Below the pieces are notes generated by a model, which worked only from the letters and a program-made list of their open reading frames with translations, had not been told where the DNA came from and ran no database searches. A stretch of 54,078 nucleotides of DNA, counting the filler, from Jimgerdemannia flammicorona (Eukaryota): assembly GCA_003990765.1 (NCBI GenBank). It is 3 parts of 3 records of this genome, joined end to end, with 100 filler letters (N's around TTAATTAATTAA, not from the genome) between each part and the next. Parts side by side here need not be neighbours in the genome. Positions count along the whole stretch, not along the records: positions 1 to 17,967 come from RBNJ01002347.1; 2 more parts are not named here. One strand, given 5' to 3'. This document shows, in pieces, positions 6,483 to 41,314 of the stretch. Position 1 is the first letter of the stretch. Each line of letters begins with the position of its first letter. A program made the translations under genes and the position numbers.

Positions 6483-8379
6483 TACATAGATATCACCAAA
6501 TATGCATGCATTTCTTGGAATTAATACATATTGAATTTGTCAAAATTGGTAACTCAATTATATATTAATTGATTTTATTAAGCTGTTGGAATCTCATTCT
6601 GGTAAAAATCTTACTGGTACCTTTGGGAGCTGTGTTTGAGATTTTGGTATATAGATAAAGGTATGTAAAGAGTGAGCGAGCCTTTTAAAAGAGGTTTTCA
6701 AAAAGGTCAGATTTTTGAAAAAGGTCAGGTTTTCAAAAAAGGTCAGGTTTTCAAAAAAGATCAAAAGGTCAGGTTTTTGAAAAAGGTTATTTTTTTGAAT
6801 TTTAAAAAAGATTGAGTTTTTAAAAAGGTCAGGTTTTTAAAAAAGGTTGTGTTTTCTATAAAGATCAGGTTTTTGAAAAATAGTTATCTTACATTTTGAA
6901 TTATCGATTTTTCACTCTAGATATTAGCTATAACAACAGACAATACATCTAACAACAATATATTTTTTCAAATAATTGGAATGGAGTTTGATCAATAGCC
7001 TCAACTATCAGCTAATATAACATATATACTATATAGCTCATATTATTAATCTGGCTGTTCAAGCCTTTTTAATATATCTGAAGGCTGATGATGATAGAGA
7101 AATGATTTCAAGTCTTTGAATGAGCATTATCAAGATCCAGTCATTACTACAGTATCATGAGAGATTTATTGCACAATGTAAAGCCTATAGAATCAACAAT
7201 CCAAAGGAACTTATTTTAGATATTAAGACTCAGTGGAACTTAACATATTCAATGATTGAATGAGCCATCAAATTATCAGAGGTAATTATATTTAATTATA
7301 TTTAATTTGTTGGGTGATATGGGTCTATTATGCCTGAGTCTAATCTAATGAATTAATTTTTATTAATGGTCTTTAAATTTAATAGTTATATCTAATAAAT
7401 ATTTGTGACAATATATCATTGGAGATTATACTTGGTAGTTGCTAAAAGATATTATTTTGGTGTTAAAGAGTTTTCAATATGCAATAGATCTTGTAACTCA
7501 GCAAAAATATTCAACAATTTATTCTACTATTCCAATTTACAACTTTCTACTGAATATGTTAGAGAATAATAACCAAGTAATTCAAAATCATACAGTAGAA
7601 CCAGAAGAAACTGAAGAGCCAAATACTCTCATTCAACAGATACTAATAGTAGCTATTGATAAGTTAAAGAAATACTATTCAATGATAGATCATCTAATTT
7701 ATTATATTGGTACTAGTAAGTAAATATTTCAAAATTTGCTTGTTACTGAAGACTATTTTGAAATTTTGAACTACAAATTCATTTTGAAATTTATTTTATT
7801 CTTTAAATGAGAACTAATTCTTGATCCTAGGCTTAAACTATAATATTATTTAAACTATAATTAGAAAATCATTTGGATTGATGTAGCTGAAAAAACTGTT
7901 CATACAGTTTATAATAATAACTATACCCCTCTATCAGTTTATCATACAAGTTCTGAAGATCATACTGAAATAGGAGATGATATCAATATTGATGATATTG
8001 CTGAGCTATCTGAACATATACACAACAAAAGACAAAAATTGATAATAAATTCTAAAGAGAAGTTAGATAATTATTTAAAAAGTGAAACTGTTAAATTTCA
8101 ACCAGGAGTCAATACATTGTCTTGGTGGCAAGTGAGTTGGTCTAATTTGAAATATTATTCGAGTTTCTCTAATTTAATTTAATTCATTGGGAATATTAGG
8201 GCCATAGCAGAGATTATCCAAATCTAGCAAAAATGACATGTAACTATTTAGCTATCCCAGTAACAAGTACACCTATAGAGAGAGTTTTTTCAAGAGGTAA
8301 AGATCTTGTGGTACCTAAAAGAGGTACTTTAGACCCTGAAACTATTTGTGAATATATGTGTTTAAAGACATGGCAATAA
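6483..8379 (+). pseudogene. hAT transposase pseudogene (copy 2), 5'-truncated, with introns
   Basis: SPNMHAFLGIN, SHSGKNL, AHIINLAVQ, LDIKTQWNLT, LDPRLKL and YPNLAKM..NYLAIPVTSTPIERVFS. AT-rich with stop codons. Confidence 0.9.
6690..6880. repeat. ~18-bp minisatellite inside a transposase intron
   Basis: aaaaaggtcaggttttt repeated about 10 times. Confidence 0.9.
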
Positions 8380-8479
8380 GCTGGCTGATTCTGAAATCTA
8401 GAAATATAGTCAAAATATAGTTTGATCTCAACTAACTAAATATATCTATATATCATAATATTTCTAATATATATACTGC

Positions 8480-8980
8480 CATATTCAAAGCTCTCAGTTC
8501 ACTTGTCATTAGCAGGTATTAATTGTACTATTTAAAGCTCTCAGGGCTTGCTTCTGACCAAACCATATACAATTACCCTGTCTCAGTCTGCCAAACCTGT
8601 CACTAAATCCATTATAGCCAGTATACCCACCACCACCACAGACCAGTATATCCACTACCACACAGGCTTGCTGAGAGCTGTGGTGATACAATTAATGAGC
8701 GAGCCCTGAGAGCTTTAAATATAGTGCTAAGAGCATAAGCCAGAAGATAGTGCTGAGAGCCATAGTGATGCAATTAATAAGTGAGCCCTGAGAGCTTCAA
8801 ATATAGTACTAAGAGTATAAGTAAGCCAGAAGATAGCACTGAGAGCTTCATAAGCCATGGTGATGCAATTAATGCCAGCCAACAAGTGAGCCCCAAGAGC
8901 TTCAAATATTATAAGCCATATTCAAAGCTTGGGGCTTACTTATGAAGCTCTTGGGGGTTACTTGTTGGACTAGTATTAAA
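8480..8980. repeat. Direct and inverted subterminal repeats downstream of hAT copy 2
   Basis: gagccctgagagcttcaaatat occurs at least 3 times, with inverted copies at ~8480-8550 and ~8920. Confidence 0.75.
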
Positions 8981-9712
8981 AATATATAAATAAGCTGTCT
9001 AAGCTGCTATCTTTAATAAAAATAAAAATAAAATATATATTCAAACTTATCTTAACTACTTCTTAAATTATTTTGAAGACATGAACCATACCATTGGCAA
9101 GATATATACTTAGACAGTGACTGATAGAATTGATACTACTTAAGAAGAACATAGAAAGAAGAAGAAAATACTCACTAAAGTAATTGAGCAATTTATTTTA
9201 GCTATTGCTCCAATACTCCCTACTGCCCTCACTGTAAGAGGGTTGTGTTTTAAGGTAACTATTACATAGTTCTGGAAGGATTTCTGGAAGTTCTAGATGT
9301 TCTGGAAGACTGTTTTCTTATGGTCAAGATCAATTTCATATGGAGTATATCCTCTACACTTATTGATTTCAAGATCAGGTTGATGTCTCAACCAAAGTCC
9401 TTTTTTGGACTAGTTCTAGATGTTCAGGATTTTCCATATTTCAGGAAGTTCAAGAAACTAAGGCCAGCTTAGTTGAATTGATGTATTGCTGCAGACAATA
9501 CCCAATTAGGAAATTTCATGATGGGTTAGGAGTGGGACCTAATGGGGAGTGGATTTACTTAAGAGTGGTTTGTGGATTATTTAAATAGATTTATTTGCTA
9601 TTCATGATTTTGCTATACTAGGAGTAGTTATATCAAGGGGTATTGTGGGAAAGTGCTCAGAAGTTGTGTTCATATTATTCAAGTCTGAGATTCTGAGATC
9701 TGGGGGAGAGAG

Positions 9713-9846
9713 TATTTATACTAGTGAGGAGCTATCTGGACTATGCTAGATATGGATGTAGCACTAAGTACCTTGCTGAGTCAGAATGCAGTCATGTAGT
9801 ACAAGAGTAATCTGACATGTCAAGAGATCATCTGAATGCTGAGTCA
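9713..9846 (-). promoter_or_regulatory. Putative LTR core promoter
   Basis: TGAGTCA at 9777-9783 and 9840-9846 lie upstream (on the minus strand) of TATAAATA at 9720-9713. Confidence 0.55.
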
Positions 9847-9908
9847 GTTCACAGTCATATCATATAAGGCTAATCTAACTATACTATGACTGCTAAGCTA
9901 TTTATAGG

Positions 9909-11007
9909 TTAGACACTGTCTAGGTAGTCTTCAATGACATTACCATCGATGACATCATCTCTGATGAAGTAGTCATCTAGGAAAAGTGGTTTGTGGATTA
10001 CTTCTCCTTGTTCACTAAGGTAATAATACATTGGAACTTCATCACCATCCCACAGAATAGCATCATCTGCCTTATATGCTGGGTAAGGTGTTGGTTGGGT
10101 AGAAGAGAGGTGTATTGTCTTTGCTCTCATCAGATTCACTATCTGTATACCTTCTGTAGATTACAGTACTATGAGTTGCGGGATTGTAGTAAGCTGGTGG
10201 CTGTGGTTTATGTCGCTCATACTCGGGTAGTGGAGTGATTGGTTTAATCTCGAGGGTTGTCTGGAGGTATAGGTTATATTCTCCAGTTTCTTCATTATAG
10301 TTGAAGTAATTAGGGGTGAATGTAAGTTGGTATTCGTGCCAGTGGTCATTGTCCCAATAAGTCTTGTATGCTGTTATGAATTGTTGTAAGTTCATTGGTA
10401 AGATTGGTAGTGTGATTAGGGTTGGCAGGGATCCTTGGCTTGAGGTCATGTCAGCATCAGAGGGATCATTGTCTTCTGCTTTATCTTTGTTGAAGTGGAT
10501 TATATCGTAGATGTCCTTCATGGTATATCCAACTTGGGGTATTTGCAGGATATGATCATTGAGGTGTGGAAAGGTTCTGTCTGTGGTTTTGATGTACTTG
10601 AGGTACTTGTGGTTGAGTTCTTGTATCATATTATTGATTTGGCCATAGGACAGAGTAACAATCATTTCAGCTGTAGTAACTTGGAGGTGGGGAATAACAG
10701 TGCTATACTCGTAGAAGAGTTCTCAGTATTTGTGGGCAATGAGTTTCTAGTGTTGAGACATCTGGGTAATGTCTGTATCATGGTGGTATTCAACCATGTC
10801 TTCTAGGAGGTGGCTGATCTGGTAGTAGCTTGAGATTTATCCAATTCGGTGGGCCTCATTGAGCATGTTTAGGGTGTTCTATTGGGCTTCCACAAAATAG
10901 AGGGGTGCCAGGCTATGGATATTCATGAGGGGCAGAGGGAGAGTGGCTTGGTTGATAATGGCATTCCAAATGTCAGCATGGATACAGGTGTAGATCTTGG
11001 TGGTCAT
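9909..11007 (-). pseudogene. LTR(U3)-embedded ORF, ~366 codons, unknown product
   Basis: ATG at 11007 (MTTKIYTCIHADIWNAII...) is in frame with the 197-aa ORF 10072-10665. Four stops are each one transition from a sense codon. One frameshift leads into ORF 9909-10139. Confidence 0.75.
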
Positions 11008-11109
11008 ATTTGTGTGTTTAGAAGTTATGGTTGTTGTTTATTTTGGTTATCTGGTTCAACGCATCTTGGTACTTGGTATATATGTATTTGGTCCTGATTG
11101 ATAAGATTC

Positions 11110-11181
11110 TATTTATATGAATCTTGTGTTCTGTAATTTCATGTTGACTCAGTTTGTGCACTGTGACTTCAGTTTGACTCA
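11110..11181 (-). promoter_or_regulatory. Second promoter-like cassette upstream of the LTR ORF
   Basis: TGACTCA at 11145-11151 and 11175-11181, then TATAAATA at 11117-11110, ~100 nt before ATG 11007. Confidence 0.5.
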
Positions 11182-11295
11182 GCTTCATGATCAAGCAGGT
11201 GATTTCCAGATTTGTTTGGAGGTCGTATGTGATTTCAGTGACTTGTTCAGAGGGTGACATGTGATTTTAGTGGCTTGGAGGTTGTGCACTTACAA

Positions 11296-11308
11296 CTCTC
11301 CCCTTCTT
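11296..11308 (-). other. Polypurine tract
   Basis: aagaaggggagag lies one base before TGTAAG of the 3' LTR. Confidence 0.85.
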
Positions 11309-11722
11309 AGCTTTTGATGTCCTCGTCAGGGCCTTCTAATTTTGTTCTAGTGTTGTTACATTATTTGGGAGGTCAAAAGTCTAGTAAAGTCCATTTTTCT
11401 CAGAAAGTAGCATGCTCATAGTATAGTTGCCTAATGCATTGGATTCATATGTTAAAGGGTTGTATGTTCAATGCCATGTGCTGGAAGTGATCCTGACATC
11501 ATTCACTGCTGGAGAATTTCCTCTAAGGAATCTTCTTAAATGTCTATACCTCATTTCCCACCAGTAGTACAGAGAGAATAGGCTTGCTTTCAGTTTTGCT
11601 ATTTTTCCAGAGGGTTGGTATTCTTGTCTTGTTTTGCTGAGTTCTTGGTCTAGTTTGTGATAATTATAATGTTTGGGAGGTATAATATATAGTATGTACT
11701 GATAGTATCAGAGTATTCAGAT

Positions 11723-23700: not shown

Positions 23701-24964
23701 AAAGCAAATTGAGCCGCATGTGCAAACAAGCTGCCGAATAGAACTGTATATGACGCGCAAATCAGCGAAACACCGTAGTAGCCGACGTAGCCCACGCTAT
23801 ACATCGGATGAGGGGCCATCTCGAAAACGCCGTCGAAAGTGAGAGATTGCTCGACCAGGAAGAAGAAGTCGCCCCAGTCTGAAACGCGAAGGGGTCGGAG
23901 GCGTGAGTCGGATGAATCTTGGGGCGTCACCTATCAAACCACATATAAAGGTATACTCACACCACGCGAAATCCTTCACGACACGATGCGCGTCAAGCTT
24001 CACCCATATGTTGAATAGCACGAGGACAATGCCTCCGAACCACCTCAGCGAGTCGGCGAGCGGGAAGGCCGATTGCGGCGCCGTGTTGATCCATGAGAGT
24101 GCGAAGCAGAAGTAAGTTGTGAAGTCGTTCATAAGGATGAGATCGACAAGCTGTCGAAACAGGAGCCAGGTGTTGAATTCAATTGGCTCAGACTGAAGGA
24201 CAAGAACGCATGGTATGAAGGTGTATTAGCTAAAGATCGCGGCATGTCTAAGTCGCGTCATATGGGTCAATTTCTTAAATAATTCTTCACAATGTCGTTC
24301 CAGACATGACAAGATAACAGCGTTCTCTCTTTTCCAATATTCAGCCCATCCGGAATCTCTCTACCATGTTCATCTTCCTTTGATCACGATCACATACCTC
24401 AAAGTGATAGTCAGGCCCCATTTTCACGCTCAATTCCCTCCTTAACCACCTATACACCTTGGGATTCTTCTTCTCGTCGAACCACCCCTTGCGGCGCGCC
24501 AACGCCACCAGGCCTTTCTTCTCGCTCTGCCATTTCAGTAAGTAACCCAAACCGGCATTATAAGCGGAACGCCACACCAAAAAGATGATGAGGAATAGTC
24601 CACGTTTGACGTAGACGGGGAGCAGGAAGAACAGGGATATTTGCAGGAGCATTAACCCCAAGGTGAGGAGGTCAAAGAAGGATTTGGCGGTCCACGGGTC
24701 AAGCAGGGAGGAGACCATGTCGTGAGTTATGGAGACACGGAAGACTGGAGGAGGTACGTGGGTAGGGTTAAGGTTTGCAGGCAACGCGAGAGGAGCTGTC
24801 GGCCTCAGCGTGTTCATAAATATGGCGTCCTAGATTTCATGCCAGATTCCATTTGACGTTCTTTTCGCACCTTTGCCGTCCGGGGTCTTGCCGTAAGAGT
24901 AGGACCCTGAGTTGTCGCCAGAGGGCTGTTCTTCAGGATTGCTGGTTTCCTTTACATCAGCCAT
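20715..24964 (-). CDS. CHO2: Phosphatidylethanolamine N-methyltransferase (multi-exon)
   Basis: [69 protein letters not shown]...[15 protein letters not shown] and [15 protein letters not shown] introns. Confidence 0.96.
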
Positions 24965-25110
24965 GGTAATTGAAGGTATGCCAGTTGAAGGGCAATATGG
25001 AGCTTAAAATATATCGAGTGCCGGTTGAAGGCGAGGTTCCAGGTCTCTACTGCGGGACTGCAGGATGGGTGGGGGAGCGAATTTTGGGGGAAATGATGAG
25101 CACGCTCCAT

Positions 25111-25144
25111 CACGTGTGGTAACACACGCCAACGCACGTGAAAT
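25111..25144. promoter_or_regulatory. Two CACGTG E-boxes in the 234-bp divergent promoter; one is a full ICRE/UAS-INO match
   Basis: CACGTG at 25111 and 25135. GCACGTGAAAT reverse-complements to ATTTCACGTGC, fitting WYTTCAYRTGS. Confidence 0.5.
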
Positions 25145-25198
25145 CCGACAAACTTCGCGTCTTCTGTTGTCTTGTACCCGACTCTCAGCCCCGACGCC

Positions 25199-26020
25199 AT
25201 GGAATCCGAAGAGGCACTGCTGACCTCATACCTCCTGGGGAACCAGCTGCAGGACAACATATCTCTCAAACAGTTTACGTCCTTGTTTCAGGCGCCCTAC
25301 CGCAGCAGCCCCCAAGTGAAGGACCTATATCGTGAGTTCCAGGACCACAGAGACGCCGTCCGTGATGTCGTTCGCAAGAACATTGCCATTGAGCTTGGTA
25401 TTTCCGCCTCCTCGACCTTTGCGCCCGTAAGGCCGCACGGTGCCATGGATACGAGCCTCAACGATGTTGATGTCGAGGTAGGTTTCCGAACCTTCCCGAC
25501 ATGTCCTCAGATACTGGCACTTATAATTACCAATCAATCAATTCTAATTAGAACTCCCCAGAAACCCGGCAACTCAATTTACAGCAATCCATCGACGTTC
25601 TTGTGGAAGTCGAATCACATCTCGCCCAACAGATTGTCTCTATGGAGCGCGAGATCTACGATATATATCTACCAGCTTTTCACAAGTAAACACAACGACA
25701 GATCCAAGTTTGATAAATCATTATCCACTTTAGTCATAAATTTAATGATTTATTCATTTTCTTATCGTGTGTGGTATCAGATTGAACAATGACCTTTCAT
25801 CGATACGAATCGATCCGCCTTCAGCTGCGGGACTACCATCGGTGGTGTCAGATGAACTAAACGTCGAAGTCATTGCGCAATTGAAGGTAAGGTGATTGGT
25901 TTTCCTGTTCAACAAACAAACTGGTAATCGTCATTTTCCCAACAAGTACTGTCTCACTCTATACATCACTGCTTTTAATTGGTACAGGATTTGGTCGACT
26001 TCTGTGACTCCATACAATAA
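25199..26020 (+). CDS. Cnl2/Nkp2-family inner kinetochore protein (4 exons)
   Basis: MESEEALLTSYLL...ISLKQFTSLF...SPQVKDLYREFQ resembles the Cnl2/NKP2 N-terminus. The spliced product ends DLVDFCDSIQ*. Confidence 0.8.
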
Positions 26021-26207
26021 GTTCGGATGGACACCATTAACTATTACTAGCCACGAGCTATAATTATATGAAATGAATATTTTTGGGCGGCGAATTGATG
26101 ATTGGGTAGCATACAGTGACATCATTTTCACGTGCTCGAATGATTGATAGCCAATGAGAGCATTAGCCACAATGTCTACACGTTGCCACCCAGCAGGCGA
26201 GTATATT

Positions 26208-29200
26208 ATGTCTGCCCAAGTTCAGCAACCATTACGTACCATTGATGGCCCCGAAGATGTGAAATCGGTGGAACACGGGGGTTTTCCACCTAAAGGCGCC
26301 GAGGAAGAGGGCAGGAGCGAGGAGGCAGAAGAAGAGGAAGAAGAGGAAGAGGAAGAGGAAGAAATGGAGGGGGAGGAAGAGGACGAGGAAGAGGACGACG
26401 ATGAGGAAGAGGAGCCCAAATTGCGATACCAGCGCGTGGGTGCCGACGTGACTGAGCTATTGAAGAAGGATGCTGCATCGGTGATGACTGTGTCTGATCG
26501 ATTTGTGGTGAGTATTAGATAGAATCGTGACGACAGAACCGTAGACGTGGACAGCAGAGTAACCTTATCTCACACATAGGTTCTGGGCACCCACAATGGC
26601 GCGTTGCACATTCTCGATTTCGAGGGAAATACCATTAAGAAGTTTGTGAAACACTCTGCGACCGTCAACGATGTCTCCATTGACGAGGCTGGAGAGTTCG
26701 TCGCGAGCGCTTCGGACGACGGTAAATAGAAAGATATGTTTCTTCAAAGTCAATCAATCGTTCCGTTCTTACCCGCTCATCAAGCCTTAATACCTTTCCG
26801 CCACTGTAATATTTTCTTAGGCAAAGTCAACATCCATAGTCTCTACGATGCAGAAACCATCACGTTCAACTACCGCCGACCGGTTAAGTGTGTTGCCCTT
26901 GATCCTGGATATAGCCGCAAAAGTACTAAGCAAGTTGTATCAGGTGGGATGGCAGAACAGCTGGTGCTAAACGAAAAAGGTGAGCTTTGATCCCTCCAAG
27001 TTTCCAAGTTCTCCGCTACTCGGGGGGGGTTGGTTGGTTCAAAATAGCGTCATTTGACTACTTAACTTCTTCCCTCCATATGCTACTATCTCCAGGCTGG
27101 CAAGGTGAGCTTTGATCCCTCCAAATTTCCAAGTTCTTTGCTACTCGGGGGGTTGGTTGGTTCAAAATAGCGTCATTTGACTACTTAACTTCTTCCCTCC
27201 ATATGCTACTATCTCCAGGCTGGCTTGGCAATAGAGACACCGTTCTCCATTCCAACGAGGGTCCAATCCGTGCCCTGAAATGGCGTGGCAACTTTATTGC
27301 TTGGGCTAACGACGTCGGCGTCAAAATCCAAGATACTATCGCAAATCAGCGGATAACGTTCATCGACCGGCCTGCAGGAAGTCCGAGAGCAGACTTGTAT
27401 CGGTGCCATTTAGTTTGGCGGAACGACACGACACTTTTGATCGCGTGGGCGGATACTGTGAAAGTCGCAGTTGTGAAGGTGAGATCCAAAGCTTACGTGC
27501 CTTGTGATAGGGTCAATTGAAAAAACTTTGCTAATACTCATAACCTTCATAGGATAAGCCAAGATTAGAACAGCAGTCCAACCTCCCCAATCATTATGTT
27601 GAGATCGTCAGCATGTACGTCTTCTAATTTAGCGAGGGAAGCATGCTTAGCTTACCTTATGGACTAATAACATTATGAACTAATAATACGTTATAATTTT
27701 ATTACACTTAAAATAGGTTCCAGACGGAGTACATCGTATGTGGCATATGTCCCTTCAATGACATGTATATCTTACTAGCATACCTTGTGGATGAATTGGA
27801 AGAGGAGGAGGATACAAATGATCCAAATGATCCAAATGAACAAAAAAGGAAGGTGAGGACGTTCTCGAGTCTCTTTTCTTCTCCGCGGTCTTGCGGCTCA
27901 GTTTGTATATCTTAGGATAGAATACTCTTCACTTCAGCTTGACGTTACTTTGATCACCCCGGTCATGCCGCCTCATTTTATTTCTTCCTTCTTTAGCTTG
28001 CCAAACGCCCCGAACTCCGCATTATCGATTCTTACAACGAAGAAGTCTCCAACGACGTGCTATCCCTGCATGGATATTCGCACTATCAAGCTAGTGATTA
28101 TATGTTCGATTATCTCCCAACGGAGGATATGTTTTACGTCGTGAGTCCGAAAGATTTGGTGGCGGCCAAACCCCGCGATATTGACGACCACATCCAATGG
28201 CTGCTCGAACGAACGCGATATGAGGAGGCATTGCAGGCCGCTCAAGAAGCATTGCCATGGGGTGGCAGCAAGCGATACAACGTAGGAGAGCTTGGTCAGA
28301 AGTATCTGAGTTGGCTGGTCGAAAAGGGTAAGGTTACTACCAGATGTTGGCATCGTCCTGCGATTTATGTTGTTACGGAGAACACATCACACATAAAAGT
28401 TGTATAAAGAGCTGGCATGGAAAAAAAAAAAAAAAAAAAAACCTAGAAACGACATATTCATGCTTTGTTTTCTGCATTTTTCATCCGACTCAATATCTGA
28501 TCAGGTCAATTTGCCAAAGCTGCAGAGACCTGTCCGAAGGTTCTCAACTCCGATGCCCAGCTGTGGGAATCTTGGGTATTTAGATTCGTGGAACTAAGGG
28601 AACTTCAGGTGGGCCTGATCGGAGGAGGATATACCTGCACACACATCATGATTGCTGGAACATACATTCCTGTTAGTCACCTATTAGTTCGATCGAATTG
28701 ACTTTTAATTGTCATTTTAAATATTGTAGGCCATCACGCCGTACATCCCTACCAAGGAACCCCGGCTGAGTAACACAGTTTACGAGATTGTACTGGCGTG
28801 GTTCTTGATGAATGATCACAAGGTAAGCGATGGTCGTGTTATCTATGGGTTTGGTGCTCCGTTGAACCGACACAGAACTGAATATCAGTAAAAATGTGGC
28901 AGACACTACTGACGACGATCAAGACGTGGCCACCGAAGCTTTACGATGTGCAAAATATCATTGTAGCTGTGGAAGATGCCTTGAGCAAAGACAAGGACGA
29001 AGAAATATTGTTGGAATGCCTGGCGGAACTGTATGTATATTTAACCTCGATTACGAGATCTCACTCCGATTGTAACTGCTTTATTCGGCGCATGGAAGAA
29101 CAGATCACCACCAGCCACCATGTTCCTCAATATTTACATTCGAACGCGCGATCTACTTGTTTTATCTCACTACTTGTTTTATCTCAATACAGCTATTTAC

Positions 29201-30461
29201 ACGATCATCAAGTCGCCAAGGCGATCGAATACAACCTCCGTCTGCGACGTCCTAATGTGTTTGATCTGATCCGCACCCACAACATGTTTGCGGCGGTCAA
29301 GGACAAAGCGATGCTGCTTATGGAATTTGATGAGTATTTGCTGAAGAAGGAGCGGGAGAAGGAGAAAGAGACGAAAATCACATCCGAGTTGGAAGAAGAG
29401 AAAGAACAAGACGAGTCGAAAAAAGTGGCGATAGGGGAGAAAGAGTGGAAGTCGGAGAAAGAAATAGAGGCGCAAAAGGAGAAGGAGAGAGAGGCGCAAA
29501 AGGAGAGGGAGAAAGATGCGCGAAGAGCAACGGGGATGCCGGCGGTGCAGTTATTGGCGAAGAATACGGAGGCCATTCTAGTGAGTTCTTGTGTTTTGTG
29601 CTCGTTTTGTTTGACGCCGGTATCTGAAGTTTTTGACTGATGGAAGAGGATTGGCTTGTGGCTGGGTTGAGAATTCGAACCGACTGTCAATTTCATGTTT
29701 TTGCTATCATTTACGCAAAGCCCGACCGCGTTGTTCCACAACTGCGGAGAAACCGCCGTTTCCTTCACACCTATCTTGATGCGTTATTCGATGAGGATCC
29801 GCATCTTGGCCAAGACTTCCATGACTTGCAGGTGTGTATCAAGCCTCCTTCCCCTCATGTGTACAGCTTTTTCGGGTGTGAAATTCATATGAAAGCAAGC
29901 TGATGCAATTCATTTCGTCCCTCGATATAGGTAGAACTGTATGCCGAGTTCGACTATCCGAAATTACAGGAATTCCTGAGGGCAAGCAACTATTATTCAC
30001 TTGAAAAGGTATGGGGACACGTCATCTGACCTTATTGGAGACTACGCACTGTGATCTTAATTGCCCTCGTTTTGACAGATCTGTTGTTCGGTCTACTTTC
30101 TACGAATTGCAGGCATATAAGATTTGTGAGCAACGAGAACTTGTTCCTGAAATGGTCTTCATGTTAGGCCGGATGGGCGACAATAAACGTGCTCTAATGT
30201 TGATCATCGAGAAGCTTCGAGACGTGAAGCGGGTATGTTGGCGGCTGCTCATAGTTTACATATCAGGAGTTGTGCTGTGTACACGGAGTATCAAAACAGG
30301 CTTAATGGTTTTATGCAAATGCATTGACACTGTCAGTTTCTGTATGTTTGACTCCAATTAGGCAATCGAGTTTGCACAGGAGCAGGACGACAATGTTCTT
30401 TGGGATGATTTATTGATGTATTCTAGGGACAAGCCGCGTAAGTCGGCGTCAAATCTTTATT

Positions 30462-30495
<34 letters not shown>

Positions 30496-31511
30496 GTCAA
30501 TGATGCTTGCTCATTAATCCCCTCGATCACAATTGTTTAACGTCATCGGTTGCATTTCTGTAGCGTTCATCAAGGGTCTGCTCGAAAATGTCGGTACGAA
30601 TATCGATCCTATTCGTGTGATAAAAACCGTTCCAGACGATCTGGAGATCCCAGGCCTGAAGCAGTCGTTGATTAAGATTTTGCAGGACTACAATCTACAG
30701 GTACGTTGTCGATTTATGGAACAATAGATTACGGTATACAACAATACGGGGTTTACCCCTTGGCCTATTTTCTAATACAACCACCACCACCATCGATCTA
30801 TTTCAGATGTCCTTGCGAGAAGGATGTCAAAAGATCCTTGTGAGTGACAGCGTGCAATTGGCGGACCGGATGCACCGAAATCAAAAGAGGGGCATATCAT
30901 GTTCGGGTTAGCACGGTTTCGATTCCCTTTTAGTCTGTGAACTTCTTTGCGTGGTTTTATGAACCGAACGTCTAATTCTGGAAGGGCTCGCAATATTCAC
31001 ATTAGATGATATGACTTGTGCGAAATGCCAAAACCCCGTTTTTGATGAAGGTATGTCGAGATATTATTGACCTTTGTGATTTTGTATCACCGTCTTATCC
31101 TTAAAGACCTAATTCCCGTTATGTACGCATAAAACAGAAAACGCAAAAACCACCATCTTGTTCTTTTGCCGGCACATCTTCCACGAGGACTGTTTCTTCG
31201 ATAACAATGTACCCTTGATACCCGAACAATTGACCGCCGCCACCATGTCAGCGAAGGTTAATCATGCAACATTCCTCCGCTCGGCTCGGGTCATGAAGTG
31301 CCCGATTTGCCAGGAACACGACGAGAAAGGGAGTGGATTAATCGGCCGGAAAATGGAGAGGCGGTTGCCAGCGAGAATAGCGTCACCTAGATCTCCTAGT
31401 ATTCGAAGCTTCGGAAGCACGAAGGGTGCGCCCTCGTTCAGCGGTAGTGGAAGGATGGATGTTTTGGATGACGACATACCTCCTATTGTGCCATTGAGGA
31501 TCGATCGGTGA
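26208..31511 (+). CDS. VPS41: HOPS complex subunit Vps41 (multi-exon)
   Basis: Acidic N-terminus then EEPKLRYQR, WD-like region (LGTHNG, ASASDDG, IAWANDVGVKI), VVSPKDLV.AKPRD.DDHIQWL, clathrin-repeat region (EMVFMLGRMG) and a C-terminal RING-H2 (FFCRHIFHEDC...CPIC). An alternative ATG lies at 26172. Confidence 0.96.
26977..27224 (+). repeat. Tandem duplication of an entire VPS41 intron plus 9 exonic nt
   Basis: Introns 26980-27095 and 27105-27218 differ by 3 substitutions and a G-run of 8 versus 6. Confidence 0.95.
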
Positions 31512-32345
31512 GAGATTGTTCGATAGCTATCGATATGAGAAGTCGTGTAATATGGGCTATTGCGTTTGGAACCTATGAAGCGGACGCCATAATTACATGG
31601 TCTCGAACATGGCGATCCTCGTCCGTTTGCAGTGACTACAGAAAACAGTTCAGCAAGTGAGCAACATTAGCAAATAAATTCTTTGAAAAATATTACCGCG
31701 AGAAGCTGGCTGAAGATGCTCATCTGAAAGGAAATTCGGCTCCTTCGGCATCATCGTAATGATGCGACTTCTATTTGAGTACCACACCCTATCCAGTCCC
31801 CCACCATAGATGAAAATGCAAAAAAGGGCGAAATTCTGTATAAAAACTACAGCACCCAGTATCCCCCCACCATAATACTAACTGGAGATCGGTGCATTGC
31901 CGTGTGTATGGCCGTAGTTTGAAAAGAGATCCAGGGCGAGGTTATATGCTTACTGGTTACCATGTAGAAACGAAAACAAATAGCCTAAACAGCCTCGAAT
32001 AAGGCGAAAAGGGCAAACGAGCCTATAACACAACTTTTAAGCGGCCCGCTTTCCACAAAACCAAGCACAGTCGCACAATTATCTATTTAGTGGAGGGTGG
32101 GATTAGACGACAAGATGTCCCAGGGCAATGCATGATAAACCTGAGGTTATTTTGTATTCTATGCTCTTGTTTTCCATTGGCTTCGGTACATAAGGCAAGC
32201 CATTATTCCTATGTAGCAATTTATTTTAAGCTCTGGTGGCTTAGTTATGACCAAAAGAAAGTAGAGTCACGGATGACGTCAGCAGTCTGCTTCAAATATC
32301 TCGAGTTGGCAACATTATCACTTTGAAGCCGCAACTCTACTCAAC

Positions 32346-33835
32346 ATGGTCAACAATAGTGGTCTTAACCTCAAGGACGACATCGCCGAGATATGGACAG
32401 ACACTGCCTATCACGACATAACCATCGTCTGCGCCGATGGCGTCGAACTTGGCGCTTGCCGTGCTGTGCTGGCTGCAAGGTGTGTCACATCATTTCTGAT
32501 CGTGTTTCATTATCTCATACTAACTGCTTTATACGGTCTCAAAGGTGTCCCGTCTTTAAGGCGATGCTGTACGGAAACATGCAAGAGAGCGTCTCCCAGC
32601 GCATCATTCTCCACGATATCACCTCTGCAGTGCTCACTGTCGTCCTTGGATTTATCTATACCGAATCGATCGACGACAACACCATCACCATCGCGGTGGA
32701 CGTCTACCGTGCAGCGAGCTTCCTTCTCCTCCCGAAGCTCATGGTAATGGTGCTGGAGCGTGCCCAAGACATTTCGGACCCTGGCCTCTCCTCGTCCTTA
32801 CTCAACGTGGCCGCCGCCTCCATCCCATGGAGTGATGCCAGCAAGGACCTCTACGCCGTGCTCCTCAAGCCCTTTTATGCTCGCAAGCTCGCCATAGGAG
32901 AGTTGGCCGACCTTTCCGAGGAGGCTATCCACCTGCTCTTCACTGCACCCTACGCGACCACCTTCGTCACTTCCGAATGTGACCTGCTTCTGGGAATCGT
33001 CGACTGGGTCTGGGCGCATGCCGAAGAACCGGGGCCCAACTTTCGGGAACGTCATAATGTCTTGCGCGATGTTGCCAGTATGGCCCCGGGATGCAAGGGA
33101 AAAATTCGTCTGGGAAATGACTCGTTACTGCTGAACATGATGAAGTATATGGACCTCACCCTTGTGTGCCCGCATCGCCTGAAGAACCTCACGGAGGCAA
33201 TCGATGGCCTTGTGGAGACGTCTCCGCACTACATAGCATTTTGTCACCACGCTTGCAAGAATACCGTGTGCCCAACGGGACACCCCTCCGGGTATCGCAG
33301 TAGACAATATCGACAAGATCTTCAATGGGATCAATCGAAAGTCGGTTCACGCGTTATCTTTTCAGACGATTGCAAGGTCGTGAAACTTTCTGCCGGGACG
33401 TCGGCAGCCGAGAGGCGGACGGTTAGGATCTCTGTCCCTGGGACAATGACTCAGGCGGGGGTGTATGAATGGGACATTGTCGTGGAATCCGTTGGGGTGG
33501 ATACGCAGTCTCAGACATTCTGCGATATCGGGTTGGTGGGGGAGAAGTTCACTGGTTACGATTCTTACATGTATAAAAAAGCATCAGCGTGGGTATTTCG
33601 GACTTGGACGGACAATCTTCGGAAGGTATGTGGGCCGGGTGGGGACCGAGACTATGGCGTCGTTCTTCGGAGCGGCGATGTAGTGACTTTACATCTTGAC
33701 AACAACAACCACACTTGCGCCCTTTCCATCAACGGGATAAACCACGGGATTGCATGGACCGACCTTCCGGAGAAAGTGTACCCTGCTGTGACTTTGGGCG
33801 CTCAGGCCAAGTATCGGATAAAAGATTGTCTTTAA
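32346..33835 (+). CDS. BTB/POZ and SPRY/B30.2-like domain protein (intron 32480-32544)
   Basis: HDITIVC...CRAVLAAR|CPVFKAML...FIYT (BTB); GVYEWDI...DIGLV...GDVVTLHLD...INGINHGIAW...VYPAVTL (SPRY). Confidence 0.88.
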
Positions 33836-35863
33836 TTTTCCCCACCTTTCTACTTTGTAAATACAAACCCACTTTATTCATTTCTTATTTGATTGTCATG
33901 TATTGTATGAATCTGCGCGGTTGTATTCTTTCAGGCACCGGCTAGGAAGTGCATTTTTATTTTTACAAAATGATTCTACACCTTATTTAAATTCTCCATT
34001 TGTGTGGCGGGCCTGCAAGCCATCTTTTCCATGACCCTCGCGTCGCAACCTCACTAACAGTCGAAGAGCCGGAGTCATTTTGGATCTGTGGCCTATTTTT
34101 GGAGGTCAATAAAAACCTTGCACTTCTTTTTGTTCTCTTGTTATTTGTAACATAAGCCGTGTTGCGTTTGTCGTTGTTTTCGGTGCTTGACAGGGCCTTT
34201 CGTTTGAGGCTTTCCTAAATTCGAGATGACACAAAAAGTTAACATGCCAAGCCAGGAGGATACCAGGTAATGATGTCCCTCCATGCCTACGACATAGCAT
34301 GAATCGTATGCACCTCAAATTCCAAACACCGTTTCAATTCGTGGCAGGAAATATCAACCACACGTGTAGTAACATGTTCTCTCTTGTGTTCAATGGGCAA
34401 GATAGAACACGCGCATTGCTGACTTCCCATGCATGCCACTACGCGAATTACGGACAACTGAATTCCCTCATCCCATAAGCTCATGCTCGTTAAATCAGTA
34501 TACAGGAAATGGAAAGGAAAAGACTGACCTCACCTTCTCCTGAACAACACTCACTGAATCACCCCATGGCGGCCACACATTTGGCGGCGTTTGCCCCTGG
34601 GATTGGGGGTGGTATGAGAGTCTCCTCGATCTGCATATGTGAGGAGAGAAAAGCATCGAATTTGTTATATTTTGTTATGCATCCACATGACCTGTAAATC
34701 TAGCTGGCTTCTCAACGTGCATAGCATCATCCTCCATGAAATAATCTGTGTAAGTAAGTACATTATGTTTCAATTCAAGATTCAATAAAGCATCACGTTG
34801 GTTACAATTTAATAAAGAAAATGGAGGCGTTTTCTAAGGAAGCATCATTATTATAGGTTTGGAGGTTGGGTGGATTCTTGGAAGTTGAATATCGCAGCTG
34901 TTTCGGTAATGTGTGCACAAGTTAATAAAATCAAGTGGGTACTAGGTACTAGGTAATCTGCCGATTGACACATCCATACAGATGTCAATAACATTGAACG
35001 CGTGCCAAACTAACGCGCAATCTGGTATTGGTAACATTGAACACGTGCCTAACTAACGTTGTAACGTGTAGTCTGATGTCAGTAAAATTGAATGCATACC
35101 TTACCAACGCGAAATCTTATAAGAATCAACTGCAACAGTTACAGCAATGACATAAAGGAGAACCGGTTTCGGCCCTTGCCAAGAGGCCTCATCAGTGGAC
35201 TTGATGGCAGTCCAGACCGGGGTTAGCAAAAAACAAATGAGCGGTATTATGGGGGGGATTTGTGTCCGGCCAATACTCACATAATTCCTTGGCGGCAATG
35301 CCAGTTCATGACATCCATCCCTAGATCCCTTATAAAAGTTGGACTTCCAAAATCATCACAGTACCCATCTAGCGCCACTGAAGACAATGTCCTCACCCAA
35401 CCGGTGTGGGCACGAATCCCTTTTGCATTCCGCGCAGAGAAAGTTGAGCTACCAGTAACGATAAACTGCAACTAGCCAAAGGCGATTTGGTATCCCTGGA
35501 GGCAAAGTCTCCAGCCTTGCCGACGCAAGATACGAAATACTTGGAATCTAGGAAGGATGCCAGTGAACAAGGCTTGTGTACGAGGAAAAAAAATTTTTTT
35601 TTTTATCACCAACCAGTGACATCATAAAAACTCTGATTGGTTTACATTGTGTTGGCCAACAACACACAACACATCCACTAGCCGCTAGCCGCTAGCTGCA
35701 ACAATATATCCACTAGCCGCAACAACACATCCACTAGCTGCAACAACGTTTTTCAACGTTTCTCCACTCATCCACTAGCAGAAAAGCCAAAAAGTATACA
35801 CCGTAAGCAGCAAAAGGTCTACAAGCGGCTCCGACAGCAGCCTTCCCAGCAGGCCTACATTCG

Positions 35864-36023: not shown

Positions 36024-36123
36024 NNNNNNNNNNNNNNNNNNNNNNNNNNNNNNNNNNNNNNNNNNNNTTAATTAATTAANNNNNNNNNNNNNNNNNNNNN
36101 NNNNNNNNNNNNNNNNNNNNNNN
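36024..36123. other. Assembly gap with artificial six-frame-stop linker
   Basis: N44-TTAATTAATTAA-N44. Confidence 0.97.
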
Positions 36124-37844: not shown

Positions 37845-40050
37845 TTTAAATGATCTTCATTACATAGAAAAAATTCTTATCATATTTACTAACATATATT
37901 TTAACTAGTACAGAAATAAAAAATATTACTTTTACACTTTTTTTTAAATATAATATATATTTATATATATCTTCTTTAGTAGAATGAAAATTCTCAGCCT
38001 GATAATTGACACATAATCTATATGATATACTTGTCTCGTTGACACCTTCAAAGTGACCTTGCATCTATCCACTTTTGCCATTAATAATTCTAATAGATGA
38101 GTTTGGCAGTGCTACACTTCTACAGTTTTCTCATTATAATTTTATCTCTTGAAATCATCCTAAGAGTTGTATTTAAATTGATTGACATGGTCAGGTTGCA
38201 AACATACAGATGTCAAGCCAATATGACTGCTTTTTTCCTGGGCTCAGAGTATTCACAGAACCTAAGAGTTATATTTATATTGATTGATATTTAAATCTAT
38301 AATTGCTACCTCTGTACTTTTATTGAACTATGGAATATGTATTAGCTTAATTATTTTTATTTTTTCTGATTTTATCTGACTAGTGTTGTTTCATATTATA
38401 GACTAATATCAAGTAATATTATTATTAATAATATTCTGGAGAGGAATATTAAGATTAGCAACTATAGTATTGACAGAATGTCTGTATAGTTGATTATTTG
38501 CCTATCTGAATAGTACTCAATACTTGGTAGTATTCTAATATAATACTCTATAATGTTATCTCTTATAGAAACTTAAATTTCCTAATCATTATTATATAAT
38601 AAACTCTATTGAAAAGAAAATTCATCACATATACTCTTTCTATAAATCCTAATAATAAAAAATGAAATTATTATCAGCACAGATTTCATTTCTGAGGTCA
38701 ATAGCTCAGCTCTTCTCTTAAGCTTATTAAGAAGATTCAGTATAATAGTTATGATTTAGCTCTAATACTCTACTATATAGATATAAATTCATCTTACTAA
38801 TTATATGTTCAAATAAAATTGGTATTTAATTTATTAGGAGCACTAGTAATAACATTTTTTATCATATTTTAATCTAATTTTAATGATCTTGAGCTTATTG
38901 GAAAGCTCTGAATTATAGCTTTCTAAAAAATATTATGACTTCAAAATTTGAATAATCTTTTGATAAGATATATTCATTTAATTATCTTGACTCAAATTCT
39001 GCTTTACAATTTAATCTAAATATTTATTCTATATCTACTCTTATATTCTTAAAAGTTTACAACCTTCTTCTATATATATTATATAAAATTTATTAAAGAC
39101 TTTTCTTACTTTTGCCAATATACTATCTTTATACTTTTAGTTTTACTTATATTGGTAATTCTAGAAAAATATTTTTCATTCTTTTTTATATATAATAAAA
39201 AAGCTATATCTTTTATCATCTGATACTATAGTTCTTTTATACTTTATTTTTTTTAGTATTTTCTTACTTATTTCCAATATAACTATCATTATTTTATAGC
39301 TATATAATTGATATATATTACTTAATAAACTTCTTTCTATTTGTAAGATATTTTTTTCTTTTTGCTATTAAATTCAACTATTGCATTTATTCTTCTTCTC
39401 TAATAAGATATAAGAAAAATTTATTAGTATTTTCAGAAAGTAAAATATATTGAAGCTAAAATACTTCAATTATATATATATTATAGTCCTTTATTCTAGT
39501 ATAAATCTGCTTTATGAATTCTGTTTATAATATATTTGAAGTGTTTGAACTTGTATCTAGTAAAAGTAAACTGCTTGTAATGTAAACTTTTATTTTGATT
39601 TATTCTATAACTATCTATATAAAAATTACAATCATTAAGTAATATATATATAATCTTTTTTATATAGTCTTGAGCATTCTTATAGATTTGATTTTTACTT
39701 TCAATAGTATTCAATTGAGACTTATATAGTTTATCTTATATTAGTAGTAGAATTTGAATTATAATTGATTGAAGAATATAATATAAAGTATCTATAGTAA
39801 TATAAAGATATTTTGATAATATTATATTGTTTATAATTAATATCTCTTCTTCTAATTATTCATGAGAAATCTGTAAATAAATAATAATTTTTTAGACTAT
39901 TTTTTAATTTATTCAAATTGATATTTATTTCTTAACTTTAATAGTTTTTTGAATAATTTATATATATATAGTAGAATTTGTGATATATTCAGTAGCTTGT
40001 ATCTAGATATATATAACTACAAACTAGCAATTTGTAATAAGATATTACTT
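37845..40050. mobile_element. Heavily decayed AT-rich repeat, probably a DNA-transposon relic
   Basis: Sharp switch to CpG-free, TpA-rich sequence and a gaaagct...agctttc dyad near 38900. No reliable protein motif. Confidence 0.5.
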
Positions 40051-40059
40051 ATACTGATA

Positions 40060-40212
40060 CTGTACTAGCTCTCTATATTGGCTATTAGTACTAGTACTTT
40101 TATCTAGTTTTTTAGAAGAGAGGAGAGAGTCTTGTCTCATTACTCACTCTGATGTCTTTTTTAATACCTACTGCTCATTCCAAAGCTCATAACAGTACTC
40201 TTGCTCTAGGTT

Positions 40213-40267
<55 letters not shown>

Positions 40268-41310
40268 GTTCTTTATACTGATTGTTAGTACTGGCTCTTT
40301 TATCTATCTTTATTGAAGAGAGTCTCACCTTGTTGCTCATTCTGAAGTCTTATTCTAAAGCTTCTCACTTTGATACTCTTTTCTGATATCTACTATTTAT
40401 TCCAAAGCCTACAATAGTACTCTTGCTCTAAATTTAAATTTTTTTTATATTCAGCTTTTCAAGAGGGAGAAGAAAGCCTCTTGTCTTATTGTTCATTTAG
40501 AAGCCTCACCTTATTACTCATTTGGAAGCCTCTCATTCTGAAGTAATACTCTTTTCTGATATCTACTACTTATTTCAAAGCCCATAGTAATAGTATTCTT
40601 ACTCTAGGTTCAGATTTTTCTTTTTTTGATTCTTTATATTGACTATCAGTACTGGCTCTTTTATGCTATAAGTAGTTTACATTAAAGATCCATAATATAG
40701 AGATAAATAGTTTAATTGTTTTTCTGTTTACCACTATGCTCATATTCACCATATTTATGCCCACTATATTCATATTTATATCTACTATATTCATACTTAC
40801 ATTTACTATATTCATACTCATATCTACTATATTCATACCTACTATACTTATGCCCACTATATTCACACCCACTATATTTATATCTACTATATTTATATTA
40901 TTCATCTATTTATTATTTACTTACTTATAGTTATATGGTGAGACTATAGTAATATGGTAAGATGTAACAAGACTATAGTAGGCTTTATCATTCACCTTAC
41001 TCATCATTTACTCTCTTATTATTAAAAGCTGCCCACTATATTTATACTATTTATCTACTCATCATTTACTTGCTTATAGTTATATATAGTGAAACTATAG
41101 TTATGGTTTGCTATTTCTCTATTTATTATTTTTCTGTCTTTTATTTTTTTCTTATTATTTTCTCTCTTATTACTTATTATTTATCTGTTTACTACTATTA
41201 TAACAATTTCACAGTTATATTTAGTCTTAGTATATTTTTATATCTTTTAGTTAGTCTTTTCTTATTATTTCTTGAATATTCTACTATGTTCCACTATCTT
41301 CTACTTACTT
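40060..41310. repeat. Nested degenerate tandem repeats
   Basis: Longer units containing ttccaaagc...agtactcttgctcta (40060-40660), 15-21-bp tatctactatattca units (40730-40900), and tacttatagttatat..tgagactatag units (40900-41310). Confidence 0.8.
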
Positions 41311-41314
41311 TACT

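Follow-up and report, generated by a model that had tools for sequence, protein, structure and literature searches.

Can a retrotransposon keep a gene of its own inside its long terminal repeat (LTR)? The question is raised by a 54,078-nucleotide stretch of the Jimgerdemannia flammicorona assembly GCA_003990765.1 (hereafter the window), in which a Ty3/gypsy element lies on the minus strand and its 3' LTR (9233-11294) holds a long, damaged open reading frame (ORF). We consider it probable that this is a dead, dUTPase-bearing Ty3/gypsy chromovirus whose family has a sense gene of ~365 codons entirely inside the U3 part of the LTR. Judged from sequence, it is well supported that the ~365-codon frame is a feature of the family, and that the four stops and the indel seen here are lesions of the window copy: two metagenomic proteins are open where the window is broken, and contigs of other sequencing runs carry the ORF.

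Results

A damaged frame inside the LTR

The first-pass annotation of this locus had described a frame running, sense to gag-pol, from an ATG at 11007 to 10072 with only four stops, and continuing to 9909 after one frameshift. Both parts were recovered. Exactly four internal stops (TAG 10881, TAA 10839, TAG 10749 and TGA 10725) precede the codon at 10074-10072 that terminates the first frame, and a second frame, set off by one extra base, runs from about 10094 to TAA 9911-9909. The ATG (11007-11005) sits inside the LTR, 287 nt from its start at 11294. The frame is composed as follows, in window coordinates.

10096-11007, minus strand: first frame of the LTR ORF, 304 codons with four internal stops (stop positions; alignments of P0002 and P0001, see below)
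10090-10101, minus strand: single-base indel; an additional base near 10095 throws the window out of frame (P0001 stays in a single frame on both sides)
9909-10094, minus strand: second frame of the LTR ORF, 61 codons plus TAA 9911-9909 (tblastn of P0001)

Stop codons are scarce in this frame. The sense strand consists of 35% A, 29% C, 13% G and 22% T, for which 0.0485 stops per codon are expected; the first frame has 5 in 312 codons against 15 expected by base composition, and its longest open run is 216 codons. Stop density over the LTR ORF (4 in 376 codons) matches what is seen in the element's own decayed pol frames (23 in 1196) and 4-8 times below that of off-frames, pol off-frames having 4.5-10%. 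A chance opening in non-coding sequence that is A/C-rich and G/T-poor would be helped by the low expected stop rate, since long open runs come more easily there. However, five or fewer stops in some frame were found in only 0.5% of 2000 shuffles, the other two sense frames hold 13 and 26 stops, and two independent proteins align in frame (E 1e-57 and 4e-68 when rounded) and repair exactly the lesions of the window. We regard chance as a very improbable explanation. An antisense open frame of 120 codons at 10444-10803 (plus strand) overlaps the ORF and is probably a chance occurrence.

Homologues that are open where the window is broken

Searched exhaustively with phmmer, 1.84 billion representative proteins, drawn from a collection of 15 billion, yielded exactly two matches, P0001 (E 3.6e-68) and P0002 (E 1.1e-57), each a single-member cluster from a metagenome contig. 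P0002 (128 aa, from a JGI/IMG contig of 1180 bp) begins at the same start methionine, is 77% identical over residues 1-128, and carries W, Q, Q and R at the four stop codons of the window. Its 29 differences in 128 residues are all explained by single-base changes, about 23.5 of them G>A or C>T towards the window, and many are changes of Arg to His, Cys or Gln.

P0001 (247 aa, from an ENA contig of 998 bp, 61% identity) aligns to window residues 115-309 and crosses the window frameshift in one frame, reading ..DNTP-IPHP-PTPYPAYK.. where the window has ..DNTPLFYP / PTPYPAYK... It ends in ..YFIRDDVID..AEYPDSI, and the window in ..YFIRDDVID..EDYLDSV followed by its stop; in tblastn, residues 187-247 of P0001 matched 10094-9912 of the window at 62% identity. 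Because no shift divides the two parts in P0001, the window copy has one base too many near 10095, and the ancestral frame comprises 304 + 61 = 365 codons plus a stop. The two differ at 98 of 253 aligned residues, 19 of which need more than one base change and many of which depart from the direction of decay. By this comparison of sequences, P0001 represents a truly diverged lineage whose frame is still open for 247 codons.

Between them, P0002 and P0001 are open across the four stops and the frameshift, which answers the worry, raised with the first proposal, that the frame might not be open in other copies. Contigs of other sequencing runs agree with the two proteins. At the four best-supported variant sites of the ORF (10998, 10956, 10562 and 9922), where the plus strand of the window has A or T, all or nearly all other contigs have G or C, and their base restores the E and V of P0002 (10998 and 10956) and the P of P0001 (9922).

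Searches of nucleotide collections added little. Metagenome contigs searched with a 197-aa piece of the ORF and with the N-terminal alignment gave no match, nor did genome contigs searched with P0002 and P0001; viral contigs gave none with P0001, 0 matches with a degenerate DNA pattern and, with P0002, one relative without a locus.

The element and the length of its LTR

The window consists of three contigs placed end to end, as its two linkers of N-run, TTAATTAATTAA and N-run (17968-18067 and 36024-36123) indicate, and neighbourhood across the linkers is therefore not real. The element lies in the first contig, with these parts.

9233-11294, minus strand: 3' LTR, 2062 bp, with TGTAAG...CTTACA ends (sequence; 157-bp repeat at 17811-17967; breakpoints at 11294)
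11296-11308, minus strand: polypurine tract AAGAAGGGGAGAG, one T ahead of the LTR start (sequence)
11295-17810, minus strand: decayed internal region with gag, dUTPase, protease (PR), reverse transcriptase (RT), RNase H, integrase and chromodomain (Pfam)
15749-15372, minus strand: dUTPase, between gag and protease (Pfam 1e-28)
11884-11738, minus strand: chromodomain (Pfam Chromo 5e-12)
17811-17967, minus strand: 5' LTR, final 157 bp only, the rest cut off by the contig end (93% identity to the 3' LTR)
17795-17806, minus strand: possible primer-binding site TAGTAGCAGCAG, 3 nt past the 5' LTR (sequence)

Pfam was run on the three sense frames of 11295-17810 with stops read as X. The domains found were, in order, dUTPase, RVP_2/gag-asp_proteas, RVT_1 (4e-29), RT_RNaseH (1e-17), Integrase_H2C2, rve, SH3_Tf2-1 and Chromo. 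The order PR-RT-RNase H-integrase with a C-terminal chromodomain is present, and these domain matches identify the element as a Ty3/gypsy chromovirus in which a dUTPase separates gag from protease. Its pol frames include 23 stops among 1196 codons, and reading through them takes two or more frame changes, so that this copy is dead. We presume TAGTAGCAGCAG to be a candidate primer-binding site from its likeness to the 3' end of initiator tRNA-Met; a self-priming site, searched for by eye, was not seen.

The pol frame ends at about 11716 and is followed by a non-coding spacer of ~410 nt and then the polypurine tract. A polypurine tract followed by TG has its sole instance at 11308-11294, and the TGTAAG there mirrors CTTACA at 9233. 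An LTR of 2062 bp had been claimed from these ends and from the match to the 5' LTR. The tract and the terminal motifs bear the claim out; the 5' match is limited to 157 bp, because the contig ends at the linker (17967), and the LTR pair by itself consequently does not prove the length. The 2062-bp length rests on the polypurine tract, the TG..CA ends and the contigs of other runs; the predicted position of the ORF in U3, past the polypurine tract, is well supported. In the low-copy flank immediately after the LTR, two 71-nt copies of 87% identity lie 82 nt apart at 8669-8821.

The LTR in other sequencing runs

Logan contigs of four other public runs were placed on 8000-17967; runs are referred to by number (X1, X2, X9, X10). 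These runs were found with the LTR as bait and the depth of a Logan contig is not a copy number, and with that limit the depth in X1 was 1-2.5 over the flank (8000-8998), 455-1905 over the LTR bins, with its peak over 9332-9997 (1445-1905), 241-840 with a mean of ~484 over 19 internal bins, and 455-1045 with an average of ~762 over the three ORF bins. In X2 it was ~46 over the ORF bins and ~33 internally, and in the other runs depth drops left of ~9233. Single contigs also connect the ORF with two promoter-like cassettes described below: record 19 of X2 covers 10913-11152, from the ORF into cassette 1, and record 11 of X10 and record 27 of X9 cover 9683/9715-9910, from cassette 2 up to the ORF stop. 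Since the ORF is present at about repeat depth and contigs reach both cassettes, a one-off nested insertion in the window copy, the other doubt entertained in the first-pass annotation, is excluded.

The upstream end of the LTR is marked by breakpoints. Two X2 contigs join 11294 to places within the LTR, 9602 and 10468, and these joints are nested insertions; two X9 contigs leave 11294 into unlike sequence, their flanks agreeing at only 0.6. All four contigs part from the window sequence at precisely 11294, each towards a different neighbour, which marks this position as an element terminus. Short repeats occupy the first 150 nt of U3 (11140-11290, minus strand), with (G)AAATCAC units and TGAGTCAA-N2-TGAAGTCAC; judged by loose ends of contigs at 11153 and by skips in X9 (11141-11251 and 11211-11243), their number varies among copies.

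Other contigs have loose ends, left unplaced, beyond 9910 (four contigs of X2) and beyond 9907 (one contig of X9, 255 letters). Translated by hand, they read ..VIENYPDSA-stop in X2 and ..INKYSDSI-stop in X9, where the window has ..VIEDYLDSV-stop and P0001 ..AEYPDSI; both keep the C-terminus and the stop position, directly ahead of TATAAAT. In the nine codons read from the X2 loose end there are five silent differences from the window and three that change a residue, one of these being the window's L-for-P decay. Shorter X2 loose ends at 10407 and 10492 translate in frame to P0001-like residues. On these translations, the apparent breaks at 9907-9910 are diverged homologues that encode the C-terminus of the ORF, and not element ends.

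The same observations bear on a different reading of the locus, in which this frame is merely the third ORF of the internal region, past pol, and the true LTR is much shorter, starting after it. Extra ORFs between pol and the 3' LTR are a known arrangement, described in the available passages of PMC7264820 and PMC5408684; only 157 bp of the 5' LTR lie in the window; and the X1 depth, highest over 9332-9997 and lower over the ORF, is as such a boundary would have it. Against this stand the sole polypurine tract-TG at 11308-11294 with its mirrored termini, the breaks of four contigs from two runs exactly at 11294 into different sequences, the persistence of the ORF C-terminus in the contigs that seem to break at 9907-9910, and the ~410 nt of non-coding spacer that already separates the pol stop from the polypurine tract. 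We find a shorter LTR quite unlikely, and retain the location of the ORF within U3.

Decay of the window copy

Taken over the entire stretch, X1 and the window are separated by 815 transition and 68 transversion places, and the window has A or T in 540 of the 815. The observed/expected ratio of CpG is 0.12-0.21 in the element (9233-17967) and 1.00 in host genes (21000-34000); TpG+CpA in the element stands at 1.23-1.27, and TpA is not raised. Low CpG together with unraised TpA points to methyl-CpG decay rather than to repeat-induced point mutation. The sense strand of the element is very poor in G, with 13-16% G against 24-29% C.

Putative promoters and RNA signals

The LTR contains the following candidate transcription signals.

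11110-11181, minus strand: cassette 1, TGAGTCA at 11181-11175 and 11151-11145, TATAAATA at 11117-11110 (motif match; putative promoter)
9713-9906, minus strand: cassette 2, TATAAATA at 9906-9899, TGACTCA at 9846-9840 and 9783-9777, TATAAATA at 9720-9713 (motif match; presumed genomic-RNA promoter)
11056-11064, minus strand: upstream mini-ORF of three codons (ATG CGT TGA), the sole other ATG between 11110 and 11005
9590-9595, minus strand: sole AATAAA that the LTR has past the ORF (presumed poly(A) signal that marks R/U5)

TGASTCA is bound by basic leucine zipper (bZIP) factors of the Gcn4/AP-1 type. The heptamer occurs 9 times in the window against 10.4 expected, 4 of the 9 lying in the LTR, which makes up 3.8% of the window; TATAAATA occurs 11 times against 3.7 expected, a count reached in 0 of 100 shuffles, with 3 in the LTR. 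The TATAAATA of cassette 1 ends 103 nt ahead of the ATG, and the third TATAAATA (9906-9899), not mentioned in the first-pass annotation, directly follows the ORF stop. A loose-end consensus left of 11153 in 14 X1 contigs and 3 X2 contigs has the same heptamer. The two cassettes had been called parallel, and each does have two TGASTCA sites plus TATAAATA; the likeness goes no further than the motifs, whose spacings are 30 and 34 nt in cassette 1 and 63 and 63 nt in cassette 2. Sharing only the motifs, the cassettes are not a duplication.

None of the runs listed as holding the LTR is on record as RNA. In X9 and X10, which are RNA by guess only, depth is 691 and 3031 over 9332-9664, 17 and 11 over 9665-9997, and 0-6 over the ORF. 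This profile may reflect a transcription start after the TATA motif at 9720-9713 and may equally reflect conservation, and we do not use it as evidence.

The predicted protein

The N-terminal ~125 residues of the product are modelled as helical, at low confidence, and the remainder is strongly acidic, rich in Pro and Tyr, and probably largely disordered. The AlphaFold model of P0002 has five helices at a low predicted local distance difference test (pLDDT) score of 43.5, and P0001 scores 35.5 in AlphaFold and 0.39 in its Atlas model. P0001 has an isoelectric point of 4.05, with 46 Asp+Glu against 10 Lys+Arg, 24 Pro, 23 Tyr and no Cys. An env-like ORF was ruled out on the lack of a hydrophobic or membrane segment, the maximum 19-residue hydropathy being 0.97 in P0001 and 0.57 in P0002. 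Nor is the ORF a gag copy, since tblastn of P0001 and P0002 on the window matches the LTR only.

Pfam, NCBIfam, PHROGs, PDB sequences and Atlas contain no relative that we could detect of the LTR ORF protein. A cellular homologue outside the element was likewise found neither among the 1.84 billion representatives nor in these libraries, a result that fast-evolving donors could escape. It bears on the possibility that the ORF is a fossil, a fragment of a host or foreign gene caught once by an ancestral LTR and without function, its open copies being merely young. In favour of this reading, neither function nor confident fold nor expression is on record for the product, open versions are very scarce among 15 billion proteins, and decay has gone as fast in the window's ORF as in pol. 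Yet the representatives, Pfam, NCBIfam, PHROGs and PDB offer no cellular or viral relative as its source. P0001 has diverged at 39% of its residues, with 19 multi-step changes, and has 0 stops in 247 codons where 0.0485 per codon would be expected, and four lineages share the stop position and the C-terminal peptide, the one short stretch open to comparison showing mostly silent changes. A fossil is in our estimation unlikely.

Other features of the window

ORFs on the host side, in the other two contigs, encode Cnl2/NKP2, Vps41, PEMT, BTB+SPRY and a Crinkler N-terminal domain, a set that fits a fungus. The Crinkler effector N-terminal ORF lies at 19467-19814 (minus strand, Pfam 9e-21), and two 81-nt repeats, 176 nt apart, are found at 18956-19212. 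From ~41000 to 52500 the sequence has a very strong G>C skew (0.26-0.55) and only a weak RVT_1 fragment at 50451-50879 (plus strand), and is probably another heavily decayed retroelement; its flanks are AT-rich, with a GC content of 17-28% at 38000-41000 and 24% at 53001-54000. An open frame of 374 codons at 41316-42437 is S/T/L-rich, has no Pfam match and was rejected as unrelated to the LTR ORF.

Discussion

We suggest, as the likely account of these data, that the window preserves a dead copy of a chromovirus whose LTR held a gene of ~365 codons in U3. Reverse transcription copies the segment from the polypurine tract to the end of R to both ends of an element, so that a gene in this position would be present twice in each element and once in each solo LTR.

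Several points weigh against this account. The homologues are two fragmentary proteins, and none of the copies seen is open over the full length of the frame. A near-length protein search with the window ORF (171-545 aa) found none, and a word-indexed protein search with P0001 found only P0001 itself. Neither a 5' LTR nor a solo LTR with the ORF was seen directly, the 5' LTR of the window being limited to 157 bp, and the placing of the gene in both LTRs draws on the polypurine tract, the terminus at 11294 and the mechanism of replication. The baited choice of runs and the nature of Logan depth, noted above, temper the depth comparison. The count of silent and replacement differences, the sole evidence of selection at the DNA level, comes from ~9 hand-read codons and is a hint. 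TGASTCA is not over-represented window-wide and the cassettes are motif matches, and between cassette 1 and the ATG sit both the mini-ORF (11064) and an AATAAA (11042-11037). The poor structural models fit disorder and give no positive support for a folded protein.

How such a gene would be expressed can be proposed from the arrangement of the LTR. A transcript might start at cassette 1, about 100 nt upstream of the ATG, and end within the LTR at AATAAA 9595-9590, while cassette 2, downstream of the ORF stop, might start the genomic RNA. That cassette 1 drives an mRNA of ~1.5 kb to the LTR poly(A) signal and cassette 2 the genomic RNA is possible, and we advance it tentatively. The ORF counts as part of U3 on the presumption that the genomic RNA starts at TATAAATA 9720-9713; a start at cassette 1 would place it in R instead. 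Alternatively, only cassette 1 might be used, making the ORF part of a long R and the first ORF of the genomic RNA; the ORF might also, instead or in addition, be read from a spliced RNA or from the 3'-terminal RNA of the 3' LTR.

As to function, the product might work in trans to the element's benefit, for example as an activator of the acidic kind or as a decoy against silencing. This is a guess, and an improbable one; acidic composition is the sole feature that speaks for an anti-silencing or transactivating role. The most complete form of the proposal holds that each LTR, solo LTRs included, is a self-contained gene with a bZIP-site/TATA promoter, a 365-codon ORF and a poly(A) signal, whose acidic product boosts transcription of the family or blunts silencing in trans, and that a second, similarly wired promoter further downstream serves the genomic RNA. 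We consider it doubtful.

Should a gene in the LTR be real, every insertion would bring two copies of it and so raise the gene dose, recombination to solo LTRs would leave it in place, and its expression, with no dependence on gag-pol, could come from hundreds of sites. Solo LTRs would then be potential genes rather than regulatory scars, and the element would be a retrotransposon counterpart of the U3 and accessory genes of retroviruses, with a dedicated promoter. It would also offer a simple system for studying what accessory needs a probably fungal retroelement has, and its relative-less protein would define a new family. Repeat masking hides such ORFs from annotation, which may perhaps explain why only two fragments occur among 15 billion proteins.

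Comparison with known systems

One of the nearest parallels in arrangement is sag of mouse mammary tumour virus (MMTV), a superantigen ORF in the U3 of the viral LTR whose product is a glycoprotein of the membrane. According to the abstract of PMC2191198, superantigens are encoded by MMTV proviruses. Like sag, the LTR ORF is a sense ORF of roughly similar size that lies wholly 3' of the polypurine tract, and in its predicted place inside U3 it would be present in both LTRs of a provirus; unlike sag, which belongs to a vertebrate retrovirus, it is part of a Ty3/gypsy element of a probable fungus, its product is very acidic and without a hydrophobic segment, and the phmmer search showed no sequence relation.

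Accessory ORFs also reach the 3' U3 in human and simian immunodeficiency viruses (nef) and in foamy viruses (bel/bet), the latter having an internal promoter dedicated to accessory genes. Unlike the present ORF, nef and bel/bet start internally, only overlap U3 and belong to complex retroviruses with splicing, whereas U3 would enclose the present ORF entirely, putative promoter included. In the Cassandra elements of plants, which are terminal-repeat retrotransposons in miniature, each LTR holds a 5S rRNA gene together with its promoter, and polymerase III transcribes it. As in Cassandra, the LTR described here would contain an independent transcription unit, multiplied with each insertion and left behind in solo LTRs; unlike Cassandra, it would hold a protein-coding frame with polymerase-II-type motifs instead of an RNA gene of polymerase III.

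Among LTR retrotransposons, additional ORFs (aORFs, or ORF3) are known from Boty (brtn, in Botrytis), Grande, RIRE2, Retand and Ogre, as reported in the accessible portions of PMC7264820 and 10.1101/2021.04.13.439636, and from the bdelloid rotifer elements Vesta and Juno, whose ORF3 is treated in the accessible portion of PMC5408684. These sources locate aORFs in the internal region, on either side of gag-pol and in several cases antisense, and the phrases 'in the LTR', 'within the LTR' and 'inside the LTR' are absent from the text of the review PMC7264820. The LTR ORF resembles them in being a family-specific extra ORF, common to copies, in an element with standard gag-pol. It differs in being sense and in lying past the polypurine tract inside the LTR, and its position is not that of an aORF or ORF3 of the internal region, the ATG at 11007 being 287 nt past the LTR start and pol ending at ~11716.

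The backbone of the element, with gag, dUTPase, PR, RT, RNase H, integrase and chromodomain, is that of the dUTPase-bearing fungal chromoviruses known from Postia (PosPlaTy3), Phanerochaete and Tuber according to the sections available from PMC2864245. Those sections place the dUTPase at the N-terminus of Pol, at its C-terminus, or between PR and RT; the dUTPase of the window lies between gag and PR and may correspond to their N-terminal type. A figure legend there also marks an 'add. ORF' in some fungal elements, with no location given in the text at hand.

In open-access full texts, a search for an ORF inside a retrotransposon LTR found only MMTV and unrelated uses of the words; cases outside these texts may be in print. 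The obtainable part of PMC6673714 has 'ORFs within the LTRs' once, in a methods passage on ORF prediction in LTR retrotransposons, and the parts obtainable from PMC4299795 and PMC3248453 hold nothing on an ORF inside an LTR. Accessory ORFs of LTR retroelements are familiar, and what would be new here is the location inside the LTR.

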